Shown here: positions 25,781-32,516 of the stretch, one piece after another
Layout of the letters: each line of letters begins with the position of its first letter
Position numbering within the stretch: the stretch's first letter is position 1
Sequence record: PV467748.1
DNA: 64,000 bases
Strand: one strand, 5' to 3'
DNA from: a phage
Made by a program: the position numbers and the translations under genes
The notes under the pieces: generated by a model
The model's input: the letters and a program-made list of their open reading frames with translations, nothing else
Database searches by the model: none
What the model was told of the DNA's origin: nothing

Positions 25781-25806
25781 AAAAAGGAGAGCGTACGCTC
25801 TCCTTT
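25781..25806. terminator. bidirectional intrinsic terminator between gene 54 and the alt-region operon
   Basis: AAAAAGGAGAGCG-TA-CGCTCTCCTTT. Confidence 0.7.
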
Positions 25807-25812
25807 AGGGGG

Positions 25813-26103
25813 TTATTTACGGAACGAAATGAAACCTGCTGCAGTCATTAGTGGTTGCTTTTTATCAAACACCGTAACTGAAATAGGAGCTTCAGATTCG
25901 AGTTGTCCTGTCACTACACCGTTAAAAATGTTTTCGGTTTGTTCTGGATGAGAAAAATTCTCAACAGGCCGGATATCAAACTGTTTGTCTTCACCGAAAA
26001 CTCGACGTAATTCATTACCCACTGCACTGTCAAACTCTTCAGAAGCAGGGATAACGTTTTCAACCACCAGTTCTTGACCATTAAAACGGAATGCAGATTT
26101 CAT
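25813..26103 (-). CDS. hypothetical protein downstream of the alt paralogs
   Basis: 96 aa; GAGGAG SD; early-type promoter upstream. Confidence 0.5.
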   Translation of the reverse strand: MKSAFRFNGQELVVENVIPASEEFDSAVGNELRRVFGEDKQFDIRPVENFSHPEQTENIFNGVVTGQLESEAPISVTVFDKKQPLMTAAGFISFRK

Positions 26104-26131: not shown

Positions 26132-26161
26132 ATAGTACCACATCCTTGTGGTGTTGTAAAC
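26132..26161 (-). promoter_or_regulatory. early sigma70-type promoter (GTTTAC ... TACTAT)
   Basis: Reverse complement GTTTAC, 18-nt spacer, TACTAT. Confidence 0.4.
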
Positions 26162-28284
26162 TACATTTTGAATTTATTTGATAAAGAAGAGATATCCAAA
26201 GACGCTGCAAGGATTTCCATAGCTTCGTTGCTTTCAGAAACGGATTCATTAACCAAGAATTGACTAAATCCATCCATCAGGCGAACTTCACCAGTTTCCA
26301 TCAAATGGTCACCATCGTAAACAGATTCGCTGAGCTCTGAAGGAGGTGTTACGGTAGCTTCCATAAGGTATTTGTGAGATACTCTATCATTCATGGCAAA
26401 AGCCGCTACTTTATCAACCTTCAACAATAATCCGCGCGGAAGGATAATTTCTGCTTCTTCGGCATATTCTGTAAGGTCACCAGGAGCGATAACTTTAACT
26501 GCTTCAGCACCTCGAATAACCATACCAATTTCAGCAATTCTATCTGCAGGACCTTCAGGTGCAATTGGATTACCAAACTCGTCTTCTTCCCATTCTACCT
26601 CTTCGTCATCGACTTCACCCACATCAGATGAACTACCACTAGCCAATTTAAACAACTCATCAGCTGAGGACAAAGAACCTTCACCACCAACAAAAACGGC
26701 TTGGTTGTCGAGGGCCATATAATTTTTACCGAATTCACCAAAGATGTTAGGCTTTAATGAGGCTGACACAAAGTTCTTAAAGTAAAATGTTTTGTTATCG
26801 ATATTATGGCGCAGAATTTTGTATGGCAAATCCTGACCACGATACAAAATAGTACCCTTAGGAAGTTTAATACCCTTAGTAAATGCTGAGTCTAAATCCT
26901 TAATCAATTTAATAGCCGTTGTATTGTTTTCGGATTCAGGTTTACCTAAAAGGAATAAGTTCATAGGAGCATATTCAGCCGCGCAATATTCAATAATAGC
27001 ATTGCTTTCGTCTTTGGTTAGGTCCTTAGGTTTAATGAGCTCGCCTGAATAAGCATATGCATCACTAATAGAATCGTTAACCAGTTTATAAACTGCTTCC
27101 ATAGCGAAAGCAATTCGAGAGGCCTTTTCTGAAGGGGAACCCTTAAAACGGGTACTCAGGTTATTAACAATTTTCTTAATAATATCCAGACTATTGGTTG
27201 TATTGATTTGCGAAAGACCACTTAAAAGTCTATCGACTTCTGTATTAAAAAATGCCATATTATTAGAGTAAATTTCAAACCCTTGTTTATCTCTATTAGC
27301 ATAATTTAGTTTAAATTTACTATCAGTCATTAAAGCGTGTGTGAGAGCAATAGTGTATCTAAAGTTGGCAAGGTCCTCGCTCTTAGATTTAAACTGAGAA
27401 GCCTGGCGCATTTTAGTAATAGCACCTTTTTTAAAGTTCTGGCTAATCTGTTCAATACCTTCATTCTCAGGGCCTTCAGCCGTGTGAACAGGTACAGAAG
27501 CTTCAAACTCATTATAAACCTGCAATTCTTTAGGGGACAAAGTTTCAGGTTCGGCAGTAGAATACTGCGCCGCTGCTGCCATACGACGGGAAATCTTAGT
27601 ACGGGTAATGACAGCCTTATCGGTACGTTTCTCTTCAACTTGTGCAATAGATGCCGCTACTGCTTCAACCTTACTTACGGCCTGGCCGGTTTTCTTAGAA
27701 ACATACACTTCGCCAACTTTAGACTCAACTTTAGTATAAAGATCGGCATTAATTTCAGGCATACCCTTGATATCTTCAATATTAGCACCACGACGTACTA
27801 AAAGAACGTAGGTATGTTTTCCGCTGAATTGGAACATGTCGTCAACAACTTTAAACTTACCACCGGTACGAGCCATAGCCAAACGAGCTAATACGCGCTG
27901 AACGGTAGGGCCCTTACCTTTCATTTTCTTAGTAGGGAAACGGAACAGAACTGCGTCCATTTTAAGTTTGTTTATTTGTTCGTATATGGTATCGAAAATG
28001 GTGTTCAGTGTACCAAGTGGATCGGTACCCAACCCGCCCTTGAGTTCTGCCGGAGCGCCTTTAGCTGACAAACTCATCAAAATAACATGAACATATTTGT
28101 CGCCCGGCTTAACCATTTTAATAGCGTCTCCTTGAGACGCATAAGATACCATACGAGCAACCAGATTATCATTACCTGGTGCTTGGATAGAGAAAATCTG
28201 TGGAATACCGGAACCCGGTTTAAGATTTGTTACTGGATAGTTTTTAGCGGAATCACTATCAAAAACCTCATTTAAATTTTCCAT
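26161..28284 (-). CDS. alt: Alt-like packaged mono-ADP-ribosyltransferase, paralog 1
   Basis: 707 aa; N-terminal LNE-V processing motif, PQIFS, KGGLG, RFPTKKMKG; C-terminal R/S/ExE elements (YRGQ, FVSASL, EAEIILPRG). Confidence 0.85.
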   Translation of the reverse strand: MENLNEVFDSDSAKNYPVTNLKPGSGIPQIFSIQAPGNDNLVARMVSYASQGDAIKMVKPGDKYVHVILMSLSAKGAPAELKGGLGTDPLGTLNTIFDTIYEQINKLKMDAVLFRFPTKKMKGKGPTVQRVLARLAMARTGGKFKVVDDMFQFSGKHTYVLLVRRGANIEDIKGMPEINADLYTKVESKVGEVYVSKKTGQAVSKVEAVAASIAQVEEKRTDKAVITRTKISRRMAAAAQYSTAEPETLSPKELQVYNEFEASVPVHTAEGPENEGIEQISQNFKKGAITKMRQASQFKSKSEDLANFRYTIALTHALMTDSKFKLNYANRDKQGFEIYSNNMAFFNTEVDRLLSGLSQINTTNSLDIIKKIVNNLSTRFKGSPSEKASRIAFAMEAVYKLVNDSISDAYAYSGELIKPKDLTKDESNAIIEYCAAEYAPMNLFLLGKPESENNTTAIKLIKDLDSAFTKGIKLPKGTILYRGQDLPYKILRHNIDNKTFYFKNFVSASLKPNIFGEFGKNYMALDNQAVFVGGEGSLSSADELFKLASGSSSDVGEVDDEEVEWEEDEFGNPIAPEGPADRIAEIGMVIRGAEAVKVIAPGDLTEYAEEAEIILPRGLLLKVDKVAAFAMNDRVSHKYLMEATVTPPSELSESVYDGDHLMETGEVRLMDGFSQFLVNESVSESNEAMEILAASLDISSLSNKFKM

Positions 28285-28287
28285 TAT

Positions 28288-30372
28288 TTACCCTTGGATG
28301 AATTTTTCTGGGATGTCATAGAGGTCTATGCATGAAGCCAAAAGAGGCAGTACATCAAACCGGGTAGATTTAACAAATGAATCAAAAGATACAGGGCTTT
28401 CGGAAGTATCGAAGTCATCTTGGTATACAACCAATTCACCAGTTTCCATTAGTACGTCACCATCATACACTACAGATTCTTGAAGCTCATCTGTTGTCAT
28501 AACTTCAGCTTGAATGAGTTTTGTATTATTAGATGTTGTTCCATCATTATTAGAAGCATCTGTTATTTTATTAACTTTGACCATTAATCCACGTGGTAGA
28601 ATAACTTCAGCTTCAGTTGCTATTCCGAGATTTCCTGGATATACAACATTAACTTTATGAGCACCGTCAATTGCCCATCCTATTTGAGCTTTAACGTAAT
28701 CAGGATTTTCCTTATACGCCCTTATTTCATTAGGGTTAATAGTTATTCCTTCTTCATTTTTATCGACTGTCAATTCATTGCGAACTTCCGGTTCTAAAAG
28801 ACCGATACCAGCGTGTGTAACACCAAATCGTCCAAAAATGATAGGGGTTAAAGAAGTAGATACAAAATTTCTGAAATAGAACACTTTATTTTTAACTAGT
28901 GCTTCGTATATAGGAGCAGTCATACTCTGGGCACGATAAACTGTGATGCCTTCTGGTATACGGTCGCCGTTTTCAAAAGCTGAATCTAAATTATTTATCG
29001 CAGATTCAATTTCTTTTTCACTCATTACCTCATATCGTTCTGGATTGTAGCGACCTAAAAGAAGATTATTGATGTCAGTATATCCTGAACCACAATATTC
29101 TCTGATACCACGCTTTTGTGATGGAGTATATTTAGAACCCTCACGAGCAATAGTAATATCAACCATAATACCGCCACCTACACCAGCAAAACTATAAACA
29201 CATTTTTTAATGAACTTGGTCTTAGTGGCTTTCCACTTGGACTCGGTTAATTCATTCCAGACGTCGTCAGGTTGACCTTTACGAGTTTTGTTATGCTTGG
29301 CCAACCATTTGGCTTTGTATTCTTCGAAAATGGTATTAATAGCAGAGGCATATTTTTCTAGAGCTTTAACAGATGTCAAAGGTTCGTTTTTGATGGCCGC
29401 AAGAATTTTATCTTTAATTTTCTCTTGGATTTCACCTATACCGTGAAGAGGAAACATTTTGTAATCGTAATGCAATTCTTCAGCAGTGCCTTCAGCTATT
29501 ATATTAGCAACCTTATTTTTAGCCGCAGGAGAATTGTTATTAGTAACCATTTCCTGGGCCTCAGGGATTAATGGAGCTGTTGCTGGTTTATTAAAATCCA
29601 CTGCAGTAGCTTCATATTTCTTAAACAGTTCACTTTCATTACGATAAGATTCTAACGATTGACTTGCTGCAATAGCACGACGCGAAATCTTAGTCTTGGT
29701 TATAACCATTTTATCAGTGCGACGTTCTTCAACTTTAGCAATACTGCCGGCAATAGCAGTTTCTTTAGTAACCTGCACACCTTCTTTTTTAGAAATATAA
29801 ACTTCACCGACATCAGAATCTACCTTAGTGTATAATTCGGAATTAATTCCAGGCATACCTTTGATATCTTCGATATCAGCTTGTTTACGAACTACTAGAA
29901 TATAAGTATGTTTACCAGTAAATTGGTACATAGCCGGAACTACTTTGAAGCGTCCACCTGTTTTTTGAGTTGCCAAACGTTGGATAATCCGTTGGACGAT
30001 AGGTCCTTGCCCTTTCATTTTCTTGGTTGGAAAACGGAACATCACAGCATCCATACGAAGCTTTTTAACTTGTTCGAATACTACGTCGAAAATGGTATTA
30101 ATAGCATCAATAGGAGTAGGGCCTAAGCCGCCTTTAAGTTCGGCTGGAGAACCTTTAGCTGAAAGGCTCATAAGGATAATGTGGGCGTATTTATCACCTA
30201 ATTTAACCTGTTTAATAGCATCGCCTTCAGAGGCATAAGATACCATACGAGCAACCAATTGGGATTCAGCATCGCCAATCTTCCAAATCTGGGGTACTTT
30301 AAGTTTTGGGTTTAAGTTTACAGTAGGCAGGGTGCCTTCGGACTCAAACACCTCATTCAATTGTTCGGTCAT
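28288..30372 (-). CDS. Alt-like packaged mono-ADP-ribosyltransferase, paralog 2
   Basis: 694 aa; same N-terminal module; C-terminal YRAQ, FVSTSL, EAEVILPRG. Confidence 0.85.
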   Translation of the reverse strand: MTEQLNEVFESEGTLPTVNLNPKLKVPQIWKIGDAESQLVARMVSYASEGDAIKQVKLGDKYAHIILMSLSAKGSPAELKGGLGPTPIDAINTIFDVVFEQVKKLRMDAVMFRFPTKKMKGQGPIVQRIIQRLATQKTGGRFKVVPAMYQFTGKHTYILVVRKQADIEDIKGMPGINSELYTKVDSDVGEVYISKKEGVQVTKETAIAGSIAKVEERRTDKMVITKTKISRRAIAASQSLESYRNESELFKKYEATAVDFNKPATAPLIPEAQEMVTNNNSPAAKNKVANIIAEGTAEELHYDYKMFPLHGIGEIQEKIKDKILAAIKNEPLTSVKALEKYASAINTIFEEYKAKWLAKHNKTRKGQPDDVWNELTESKWKATKTKFIKKCVYSFAGVGGGIMVDITIAREGSKYTPSQKRGIREYCGSGYTDINNLLLGRYNPERYEVMSEKEIESAINNLDSAFENGDRIPEGITVYRAQSMTAPIYEALVKNKVFYFRNFVSTSLTPIIFGRFGVTHAGIGLLEPEVRNELTVDKNEEGITINPNEIRAYKENPDYVKAQIGWAIDGAHKVNVVYPGNLGIATEAEVILPRGLMVKVNKITDASNNDGTTSNNTKLIQAEVMTTDELQESVVYDGDVLMETGELVVYQDDFDTSESPVSFDSFVKSTRFDVLPLLASCIDLYDIPEKFIQG

Positions 30373-30380
30373 AATAATTC

Positions 30381-32276
30381 CTATTTAAATAAATTTGATA
30401 ATTTTTCCATAGAATCTTCGTAAAGGATTTTATCATAACTTTCAAATGAAAGTACTGTGCTATACGAATTTTCTTCTGTGATTTGTTCAGAACCAATAAC
30501 TTCGCACTCCACCAATACGTACTTACCTATAGAACCCATAAGACCTTTAGAAGCACCATACACTTTATTAATTTTAAGCATTACGCCTCTAGGAAGAATA
30601 ACCTCAGTTTCTGTAGACCAATTTGCCAAATTACCTGGTACGATAACTTTAATTTTGTCCGCGCCTTTAATAATTAATCCAAGCTTAATTGTCTCTCTAG
30701 CACTTCCGGTTGCACTTTTAATTGTGTCTTCTAGATTATTATCTATATCGCTAGAAAGAGCTTCGGGATCTAAATTTGATTGAGCGTGTCCCATTTCGCC
30801 AAAAATATTAGGAGCTAATGAGGTAGATGCGAAAATAGGAAGATACATTACTTTATGTTTTATTGAATTCAAAGCCATTTCGGTGGGCATTATTTGAGAT
30901 CGATACACTATAGTTCCTTTAGGGAGCTTTGTACCGTTTTCAAAAGCAGAATCCATATCACCAATCATTTTTATCATTTCATCAGTAGTATCTGTTTTAC
31001 CTAATAAAAAGTTGTTAATGTGATTATATCCACCGCGAGTGTACTTTTTGATAGCCTCTTCTTGAGGTTTAGTTAAATTGGGATTGTCATCTATTTTAAA
31101 CAAAGGTTGTATAGATTTGGTATAGACTGCTACTAATGATTTTATTACTTCTTTTATTTTAGATTCTCTAGCCCATGTACCTTTAACTGAACCATCTAAA
31201 AGAGATGCGGCAACTAATCTAAGGACGTCCACATGTGTTTTACCTGATTTTAAAGCATTTATAACACCATTAGATTTATCTAAAGAATCTGATGATTCTA
31301 AAGCAAACTTTATATCTTTAATTAATTTAAGCCTATGCTCATCTATTTCAAACGACGGATTAACACCATTAAAAATATAATCTAAATATTCTGCCATTTC
31401 TTTAGAAGTATCTTTTAATACTTTAATACCGGCTGACGCTATTTGGCTTTCTTTAGAACCTTCAGAAGAATGCACTGAACTAGTAATAGATAAATCGGAG
31501 TAAACTTTTTTATGTTCTTCTGAAAATTTATTCAATCCTGACGGTTCTGATGTTGAGTATAGTGCATTTATTGCGGCTCGTTTAGAAACCTTTGTTTTGG
31601 TTATAACCATTTTATCTGAACGAGATTTTTCTATTTCATCTATAGATTTAGCTATGGCTTCTAGTTTAGTAACATCTTCACCTGTTTTCTTTGAAACATA
31701 TACATCACCAACTTCAGATTCAACTTTAGTATATAACTCAGCATTAATATTTGGGATGCCTTTTATAGATTCTATATTTTTATTTTTACGGTAGATAAAA
31801 ACATATGAATGTTTACCACTGAATTGGTACAAGGCGTCAAGGACCTTGAATTGTCCACCCGCTCTAGAAGCTATCAATTTGGCTAGGACTCTCTGTACGG
31901 TTTTTTCCTGCCCTTTCATTTTCTTGGTTGGAAAACGGAACATCACAGCATCCATACGAAGAGCTTTAATTTGTTCATAGACTATATCAAATATGGAACG
32001 AATAGCTGAAATAGGATTTGTGCCTAGCCCGCCTTTAAGTTCAGCCGGCGTACCTTTAGGAGATAGGCTCATTAAAATAACATGCACGTATTTATCACCC
32101 GGCTTAACTTGTCTAATGGCATCACCTTCTGAAGTATAAGAAACCATTCGCGCTACAAGGTTATCATTACCTTCTGCCTTTATATTCCAAATCTGTGGTA
32201 CTTTAAGTTTAGGGTTTAAATTAATAGCAGATAAATCTACATCCCCATCAAATATTTCATTTAGTTGTTCAGGCAT
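30381..32276 (-). CDS. Alt-like packaged mono-ADP-ribosyltransferase, paralog 3
   Basis: 631 aa; same N-terminal module; C-terminal YRSQ, FASTSL, ETEVILPRG. Confidence 0.85.
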   Translation of the reverse strand: MPEQLNEIFDGDVDLSAINLNPKLKVPQIWNIKAEGNDNLVARMVSYTSEGDAIRQVKPGDKYVHVILMSLSPKGTPAELKGGLGTNPISAIRSIFDIVYEQIKALRMDAVMFRFPTKKMKGQEKTVQRVLAKLIASRAGGQFKVLDALYQFSGKHSYVFIYRKNKNIESIKGIPNINAELYTKVESEVGDVYVSKKTGEDVTKLEAIAKSIDEIEKSRSDKMVITKTKVSKRAAINALYSTSEPSGLNKFSEEHKKVYSDLSITSSVHSSEGSKESQIASAGIKVLKDTSKEMAEYLDYIFNGVNPSFEIDEHRLKLIKDIKFALESSDSLDKSNGVINALKSGKTHVDVLRLVAASLLDGSVKGTWARESKIKEVIKSLVAVYTKSIQPLFKIDDNPNLTKPQEEAIKKYTRGGYNHINNFLLGKTDTTDEMIKMIGDMDSAFENGTKLPKGTIVYRSQIMPTEMALNSIKHKVMYLPIFASTSLAPNIFGEMGHAQSNLDPEALSSDIDNNLEDTIKSATGSARETIKLGLIIKGADKIKVIVPGNLANWSTETEVILPRGVMLKINKVYGASKGLMGSIGKYVLVECEVIGSEQITEENSYSTVLSFESYDKILYEDSMEKLSNLFK

Positions 32277-32311
32277 AATAATTCCTCTTAATACCTGTAT
32301 TTATGCCAGAA

Positions 32312-32329
32312 AAAGGCCCGAAGGCCTTT
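32312..32329 (-). terminator. intrinsic terminator upstream of alt paralog 3
   Basis: AAAGGCC-CGAA-GGCCTTT with a T-tract on the - strand. Confidence 0.6.
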
Positions 32330-32330
32330 A

Positions 32331-32516
32331 TTAAGGAAGTACTAGCAGAGTACGGTAAACTTCAAATTTAGGACCCTTTTCATAGCGGTCGAAATTATCT
32401 TTAAAATCAGCGAACGCGATTTCATTTTCAAATTCAAGGACAATTTGGGACACTGCGGTGGAGACATCGCCACCTTCTTTATATCCAATAACCACGGTTT
32501 CTAAATAAGCTTTCAT
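32331..32516 (-). CDS. hypothetical small protein (start uncertain)
   Basis: ORF abutting the ligase stop; internal Met start gives 61 aa. Confidence 0.4.
   Translation of the reverse strand: MKAYLETVVIGYKEGGDVSTAVSQIVLEFENEIAFADFKDNFDRYEKGPKFEVYRTLLVLP

Follow-up and report, generated by a model that had tools for sequence, protein, structure and literature searches.

Alt is the textbook case of an enzyme that is packed in the phage head, injected with the DNA and reprograms the host; in T4 about 40 copies per capsid are injected in this way. Here an array of three alt-type genes, termed P1, P2 and P3, is examined within a 64,000-nucleotide (nt) stretch of phage DNA (sequence record PV467748.1, termed here the window), whose source phage is a Dhakavirus (a JS98-like T-even phage). 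Late synthesis, head packing and injection form the published model for ADP-ribosyltransferases (ARTs) of the Alt/VIP2 type (PMC5512222, PMC9503650). T4 Alt (gpAlt, NP_049811, 682 amino acids) has the same four parts as the proteins described below--an N-terminal module (the N module), a helical central region, an ART domain with R-S-E catalytic elements, and a C-terminal tail--as well as both motifs recognized by the gp21 prohead protease, which cuts it at ITE-6 and at LTE-619, the latter cut removing 63 C-terminal residues (PMC5694885). Duplications of alt were described in 2006 for 44RR, RB49 and T4 itself (alt.-1/alt.-2; PMC1524935) and in 2014 for JS98, Bp7, Ac42 and ZZ1 (PMC4177764). Outside this family, the R-S-E toxins C3, VIP2, iota, Vis and Certhrax are secreted bacterial proteins that lack an Alt N module, gp21 processing and phage-head delivery; MuF-ART fusions and polyvalent proteins, by contrast, likewise combine a head-associated N-terminal domain with an ART that is delivered with the DNA (PMC5512222, PMC9503650).

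The array occupies the same locus as T4 alt, with the same upstream hairpin and late promoter box, but consists of three intact copies rather than of one intact copy and a decayed 5' half of a second. It is very likely a single late operon of three functional T4 Alt-family genes whose products are packaged, processed and injected ARTs. In order of transcription, the genes are:

32276..30381, minus strand: P3, 631 amino acids, first gene of the array and of a rare Alt type
30372..28288, minus strand: P2, 694 amino acids, middle gene
28284..26161, minus strand: P1, 707 amino acids, last gene

In the list of open reading frames (ORFs) of the window these appear as three co-oriented minus-strand ORFs in tandem, separated by gaps of 8 nt (P3-P2) and 3 nt (P2-P1), and with exactly the limits given in an earlier reading of this DNA made without database searches (termed here the sequence-only reading). 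The 5' flank consists of the DNA ligase gene (gene 30) and then a small alt.1 homologue; the 3' flank, of an alt.-3 homologue and then gp54 and gp48 on the opposite strand. Synteny comparison shows that this position, between gene 30/alt.1 and alt.-3/gp54, is that of T4 alt, as the sequence-only reading had proposed, although its description of T4 as carrying a single alt gene overlooks alt.-1/alt.-2, the decayed 5' half of a second copy, which is closest to T4's own Alt. The three-gene array is real and intact. A direct-repeat finder recovers from it a 286-nt stretch in three DNA copies (69-72% identity, spaced 2094 and 1901 nt apart), and the entire 6.1-kb array is, over its full length, 91-92% identical in nucleotide sequence to those of the Escherichia phages PSD2002, vB_EcoM-E33, WG01 and LQ5, and equally to those of Shigella phage PSD9 and Salmonella phage vB_SalD_ABTNLS3.

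Such arrays are already deposited in GenBank/RefSeq, so that the novelty is low and no new kind of system is involved. Three alt-type genes occupy the locus in at least 11 Dhakavirus genomes, and in most of these records they are annotated as Alt-like or ADP-ribosyltransferase; WG01, E33, PSD9, QL01, MX01 and AnYang are annotated as triple arrays, which bears out the caveat of the sequence-only reading that such arrays might be common in close relatives. The order of 631, 693 or 694, and 707 amino acids recurs in WG01 (YP_009323398-400), PSD2002, vB_EcoM-E33, PSD9, LQ5, vB_SalD_ABTNLS3 and 04086, and in the WG01-type array all three genes are already annotated as 'Alt-like RNA polymerase ADP-ribosyltransferase'. 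From this type the window shows allelic differences only, with amino acid identities by module of 98-100% for P1, 92-98% for P2 and 77-94% for P3 (84% in the central region and 77% in the 30-residue C-propeptide of the latter). The arrangements found, from first gene to last, are:

Window, WG01 and 04086: P3, P2, P1
QL01 (C6, MX01 and AnYang similar): P2, a fourth type (681 amino acids), P1
JS10, IME08 and CLB_P2: P2, P1
JS98: P2-type frame carrying another cassette, P1
SP18: P3 type, a divergent 686-amino-acid gene
RB69: one alt gene
T4: one alt gene and the decayed 5' half of a second copy

The altA/altB pairs (JS98, JS10, IME08, CLB_P2 and Bp7) consist of a P2-type and then a P1-type gene between the same flanks, without a P3-type gene, JS98 AltA having another central and ART cassette in a P2-type frame. 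The QL01-type arrays (QL01, C6, MX01, AnYang and fDHCT2) likewise have three Alt genes at the same locus, with the P2 type first and the P1 type last, but their extra gene, the fourth type, lies between P2 and P1, whereas the extra gene of the window lies upstream of P2. In the WG01-like 04086 (L011, 1009-3575) the P1-type gene is interrupted: its ORFs encode 269 and 608 amino acids, and about 740 nt between the two annotated genes are unannotated, reflecting either an insertion or a frameshift.

P1, P2 and P3 are members of the T4 Alt family (the Alt/VIP2 clade of R-S-E ARTs; PHROG 802): all three have an ART with R, S-x-S and E-x-E elements, an N module, gp21 motifs and the alt locus. Pfam PF03496 (ADP-ribosyltransferase exoenzyme) matches all three proteins with E values of 2.6e-17, 2.2e-36 (P2) and 2.5e-15, and the catalytic residues are intact, namely R482, S507-A-S509 and E610-A-E612 in P1; R480, S505-T-S507 and E587-A-E589 in P2; and R459, S484-T-S486 and E556-T-E558 in P3. 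The family assignment of the sequence-only reading is thereby confirmed. The proteins are laid out as follows, with cleavage sites as predicted below:

P1: residues 1-6, N-propeptide (LNE, then V); 7-236, N module; 237-421, central region; 422-652, ART; 653-707, C-propeptide
P2: residues 1-7, N-propeptide (LNE, then V); 8-234, N module; 235-414, central region; 415-632, ART; 633-694, C-propeptide
P3: residues 1-7, N-propeptide (LNE, then I); 8-235, N module; 236-400, helical central region; 401-601, ART; 602-631, C-propeptide

Among the three proteins the N modules (about 235 amino acids) are 65-66% identical, the ART regions 38-43%, the C tails 20-37% and the central regions 16-22%; to the N module of T4 Alt their N modules are 42-46% identical. 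The common N-terminal module with a gp21-type L-x-E motif that the sequence-only reading had described is thus present, as are its PQIF/PQIW, KGGLG and RFPTKKMKG blocks in all three proteins, and its catalytic strings are exact throughout (YRGQ, FVSASL and EAEIILPRG in P1; YRAQ, FVSTSL and EAEVILPRG in P2; YRSQ, FASTSL and ETEVILPRG in P3). Two details require adjustment: ITKTKISRR is exact in P2 only (P1 has ITRTKISRR and P3 ITKTKVSKR), and the LNE motif, found in all three, occupies residues 4-6 in P1 but 5-7 in P2 and P3.

Two further structural differences from T4 Alt are that the C-propeptide of P3 is shorter and different, and that P1 adds a 30-residue acidic insertion to its ART domain:

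26551-26694, minus strand: acidic insertion of P1, about residues 531-578, core DVGEVDDEEVEWEEDEF

The sequence-only reading had noticed this insertion, which is real, but had placed it in the central region; it is in fact part of the ART domain, located between S-x-S and E-x-E. The distance between these two motifs is 103 residues in P1 versus 71-82 in P2, P3 and T4 Alt; the P1 stretch between them contains 23 D+E and 6 K+R residues, and the Pfam ART match on P1 is broken into two stretches.

The copies differ in their relationship to T4 Alt. P2 is 46% identical to it in the N module, 35% in the central region, 62% in the ART and 57% in the tail, as against 16-21% (central), 38-40% (ART) and 20-37% (tail) between P2 and P1 or P3. 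Because its central, ART and tail regions are far closer to T4 Alt than to P1 and P3, P2 is, as judged by module identities, the orthologue of T4 Alt. P1 and P3, which are 13-14% (central) and 38-41% (ART) identical to T4 Alt, are old, divergent paralogues. P1 is the AltB of JS98, JS10 and IME08, and in every module is 96-100% identical to the last alt gene of JS98, JS10, IME08, CLB_P2, QL01 and WG01. Full-length matches to P3 in the protein search consist of one cluster (90%) and the AltA of Shigella phage SP18 (63%; a Gaprivervirus), the remaining 118 matches covering the N module and ART only; P3-type genes also occur in WG01 and in phage 04086. When each SP18 N module (L008, 5001-8945) is measured against the paralogues of the window, identities are 64-71% for altA and 41-43% for altB; given these ranges, the within-genome similarity of N modules seen among the Dhakavirus copies (65%) may not be a general rule.

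Exchange between paralogue types is apparent from two relatives. JS98 AltA is 97% identical to P2 in the N module and 96% in the C tail, with 38% in the central region and 61% in the ART, and the middle gene of QL01 joins an N module 93% identical to that of P1 to an unrelated C part. As these module identities indicate, recombination reshuffles central and ART cassettes within a conserved N module and C tail. In comparison with WG01, the ratio of nonsynonymous to synonymous substitutions (dN/dS) is 0-0.18 for every module of every paralogue; all modules of all three are under purifying selection. In the same comparison the central regions have a dN/dS of 0.10-0.13 versus 0.03-0.06 for the N and ART modules, and dS climbs along the array from 0.06-0.21 in P1 to 0.6-1.1 in P3, a steep rise that points to recombination, that is, to mosaic ancestry along the array.

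The sequence-only reading had further described the region between the N module and the ART as roughly 200 residues in length and as consisting of unrelated domains. Outside the Pfam ART match only about 145-185 residues are variable. The central regions indeed show no similarity to each other by hhalign (probabilities of 6% for P1-P2 and 0.1% for P2-P3), P1 and P3 having only a 40-residue linker in common. Nevertheless, positions 237-410 of the PHROG 802 profile match all three of them collinearly (E values of 6e-19, 9e-24 and 1.6e-4). Moreover, a model of P3 residues 236-631 (396 amino acids; predicted local distance difference test score, pLDDT, 85.6; predicted template modelling score, pTM, 0.85), in which an all-helical central domain stands against a canonical ART, superposes on the C-terminal half of the split Alt of Acinetobacter phage ZZ1 (TMq 0.75, 399 columns, 24% identity). 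Different folds are disfavored by these two observations; on account of the collinear profile match and the whole-length superposition, the central regions are probably one helical domain that has diverged past sequence recognition, with the direct structural evidence for a common fold coming from P3, the sole paralogue modelled there.

Two sequence signals lie between the alt.1 homologue and the array:

32310..32326, minus strand: intrinsic-terminator-like hairpin GGCCTTCGGGCC with a T run, which ends the ligase/alt.1 transcript just upstream of the array
32298..32305, minus strand: late-promoter-like box CATAAATA, 22 nt upstream of the P3 ATG

This hairpin is also located ahead of the first alt gene in T4, RB69, SP18, JS98, JS10, QL01, WG01, CLB_P2 and IME08, and a conserved terminator upstream of alt has been noted previously (PMC1524935). 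At the aligned position T4 and SP18 have TATAAATA, and RB69 has CATAAATA, as does every Dhakavirus locus examined, so that the hairpin and a (T/C)ATAAATA box are kept whichever paralogue stands first. Neither P2 nor P1 is preceded by a consensus late box; the closest approach to one, TTTAAATA, spans the P3 stop codon, and internal late promoters for these two genes were rejected as a candidate, only one-mismatch boxes of this kind being available. Given the conserved box upstream of P3, the 3- and 8-nt gaps and the lack of an internal consensus box, the array is most likely one late operon. P3 and P2 have an identical ribosome-binding region, GGAATTATTATG. A search of the region for structured RNA yielded no Rfam family at threshold.

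Both ends of the proteins carry candidate sites for the prohead protease. An N-terminal L-x-E is present in essentially all of 124 aligned family members, in the majority as LNE followed by VF, and about 110 of the 124 have an [LIVM]-x-E at the position of T4 LTE-619. In the window the N-terminal sites are LNE-6 (P1) and LNE-7 (P2 and P3), and the C-terminal sites aligned with T4 LTE-619 are LSE-652 (P1), LQE-632 (P2) and ITE-601 (P3). Cleavage there would release C-propeptides of 55, 62 and 30 residues and leave mature proteins of 71, 69.5 and 65 kDa for P1, P2 and P3, respectively. The extreme C termini of the three proteins and of T4 Alt end in a similar motif with an invariant Phe (NKFKM, EKFIQG, NLFK and YKFVQG). 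An Alt of an RB69-like phage has been reported in virions, the sole such report found (PMC6563131); the searchable literature yielded no paper on Alt function or virion proteomics in Dhakavirus.

Putting these features together with what is known of T4, from which packaging, cleavage, injection and arginine specificity with nicotinamide adenine dinucleotide (NAD+) as substrate are carried over, the array would operate as follows. All three genes would be transcribed late from the CATAAATA box upstream of P3, and each protein would be incorporated into the prohead core, where gp21 would trim it after L-N-E at residue 6 or 7 and again after [L/I]-x-E, at 30-62 residues before the C-terminal end. 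Once mature, the proteins (65-71 kDa) would stay with the DNA inside the head and pass with it into the next host, there to carry out NAD+-dependent mono-ADP-ribosylation of arginines, as expected of E-x-E type R-S-E ARTs. Because P2 is orthologous to T4 Alt (ART 62% identical), RNA polymerase alpha and the remaining Alt substrates are its most likely targets; those of P1 and P3, to judge from their divergence, are most likely different host proteins.

Several considerations weigh against this reading. Packaging and cleavage of P1, P2 and P3 are predicted from motifs, and the divergence of their targets from that of their sequences; no function is known in T4 Alt for the central domain, the proposed specificity element; the CATAAATA box departs from the T4 late consensus TATAAATA at one position, the first (C instead of T); no experiments on P1, P2, P3 or any Dhakavirus Alt paralogue were found in the searchable literature; and T4 Alt by itself reportedly modifies many host proteins (PMC5512222), so that the substrates of the three may overlap. 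One alternative is that all three enzymes have their substrates in common, RNA polymerase alpha being one of several, and that the array merely raises the injected dose or buffers against loss. The identical set of catalytic motifs and the N module found in all three copies, the several host proteins reported for T4 Alt alone (PMC5512222), and the variation from one to three copies among related phages with no obvious consequence all accord with redundancy of this kind. Yet the ARTs are only 38-43% and the central regions 16-22% identical, each type is near-unchanged across phages (96-100% with a dN/dS of about 0 for the P1 type), and redundant copies would be expected to homogenize or to decay, as T4 alt.-1/alt.-2 did; redundancy is therefore considered unlikely.

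Somewhat more plausible, though still doubtful, is that P1, P3 and the exchangeable cassettes constitute a counter-defence battery aimed at variable host defence or toxin proteins and not at the housekeeping machinery, the mosaicism of the locus reflecting an arms race. This would account for the exchange of cassettes in conserved frames (JS98 AltA and the QL01 middle gene), for the different slots of the extra gene in WG01-type and QL01-type arrays, for the central regions having the highest dN/dS of the three large modules (0.10-0.13 vs 0.03-0.06) and for the recombination evident in the steep rise of dS along the array. However, dN/dS stays well under 1 throughout, the P1 type does not vary within Dhakavirus, unlike what is expected of an arms-race locus, and the literature searched reports no defence-protein target of any Alt paralogue. 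A third possibility, and a very improbable one, is that one or two of the three are not virion proteins but act late in the producing cell, like ModA and ModB after infection. In its favor, the C-propeptide of P3 is short (30 amino acids) and unlike the others except in its last residues; against it, all three keep the N-terminal L-N-E, the N module, the C-terminal [L/I]-x-E and the terminal L-x-x-F, and all lie within one probable late operon. ModA and ModB are not known to have an N module. The preferred reading remains that of three packaged ARTs, of which P1 and P3 most likely have targets other than those of P2.

What all three share most strongly is the N module, a conserved basic alpha/beta domain located as follows:

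27577..28266, minus strand: N module of P1
29671..30351, minus strand: N module of P2
31572..32255, minus strand: N module of P3

In all three proteins this 25-kDa module has a net charge of +12 to +14 and an isoelectric point (pI) of 9.6-9.8. In P1 and P2 the ART domain, by contrast, is acidic (pI 4.6-5.0), and so are all three propeptides (pI 4.1-4.4); the P3 ART domain is near neutral (pI 6.0). The P2 N module is modelled as an alpha/beta domain with a pLDDT of 89.4 and a pTM of 0.87. The T4 targeting peptide has about 10 residues; hence a folded, strongly basic domain of this size goes far beyond the 'packaging signal' as which the sequence-only reading had regarded it. PHROG 802 matches the N module at its positions 1-236 (E = 1.8e-119), and homologues from the protein search carry PF26846 together with PF03496; searches of the N modules themselves against Pfam, NCBIfam and PDB sequence profiles gave no match. 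In particular, Phage_Mu_F does not match in Pfam even at E values up to 10, so that, although MuF-ART fusions are among the Foldseek matches to the P3 model, the Alt N module is, unlike their carriers, not recognizable as a MuF domain.

A survey of 1.84 billion representative proteins placed the N module in just 70 clusters (at 50% identity), where it invariably forms the very N terminus and is nearly always paired with an ART. A role as a general carrier of many effector classes, as in polymorphic toxins, was rejected because the ART is a near-constant partner; only alleles of the central and ART cassette, not effector classes, are exchanged behind the module. Rare proteins with an N module include P0173 (1142 amino acids), in which a degenerate ART-like stretch is followed by about 650 extra residues, and P0175 (541 amino acids), which lacks a Pfam ART match and whose relative P0176 (786 amino acids) has an insert ahead of its ART.

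The N module might be more than a handle for packaging and ejection, either by binding a ligand or acting as an enzyme (in a GNAT-like manner) or by binding nucleic acid in the head, though this is rather improbable. Its more specific form, in which the module is a second functional, GNAT-like domain for ligand binding or acyl transfer and not a passive packaging handle, is more speculative yet, and so is its corollary that an invariant G-x-G loop occupies the site that holds the coenzyme A pyrophosphate in GNAT proteins. If true, every Alt, including that of T4, would be a bifunctional injected effector, and the array would bring three central and ART cassettes on a common active chassis.

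Recent general gene conversion among the N modules was also rejected, since synonymous differences occur all along the DNA alignment, in which nucleotide identity is about 70%. To the N module of the single Alt of RB69 that of P2 is 75% identical, and to that of the single Alt of Enterobacter phage Entb_45, 82%; because the P2 module is closer to these single-copy Alts of other genera than to P1 and P3, general homogenization is likewise excluded. The sole exception is a perfectly identical 53-nt tract in P2 (30008-30060) and P3 (31909-31961), encoding LRMDAVMFRFPTKKMKGQ against the background of about 70% nucleotide identity, which may be a small gene-conversion tract or may reflect constraint at the nucleotide level. 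The longest exact match between P1 and P2 is 25 nt.

More generally, the existence of arrays with two or three divergent Alt paralogues suggests that the ARTs injected by T-even phages form a small battery with different substrates. The searchable literature yielded no functional work on any Alt paralogue other than the T4 type, and the modular picture obtained here--a basic N module, exchangeable cassettes, a C-propeptide site and one late promoter--should be useful for determining paralogue-specific ADP-ribosylomes and for domain swaps. It also suggests that the Alt frame could be used to package foreign cargo.

Directly downstream of the array, the alt.-3 homologue has signals of its own:

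26132-26160, minus strand: early-type promoter of the alt.-3 homologue (GTTTAC, 17 nt, TACTAT, with an upstream TG)
25813-26103, minus strand: alt.-3 homologue, 96 amino acids (PHROG 1739, E = 8e-43)
25783-25806, minus strand: strong terminator of the alt.-3 homologue

In T4, C-terminal extensions of Alt.-3 permit escape from the CmdTAC defence system (PMC11618068). Upstream of the array, the alt.1 homologue (32331-32516, minus strand; PHROG 1976, E = 1.5e-30) probably starts at the ATG of MKAYLET... rather than at the upstream TTG chosen by the ORF finder; as listed from that TTG, the ORF overlaps the end of the ligase gene.

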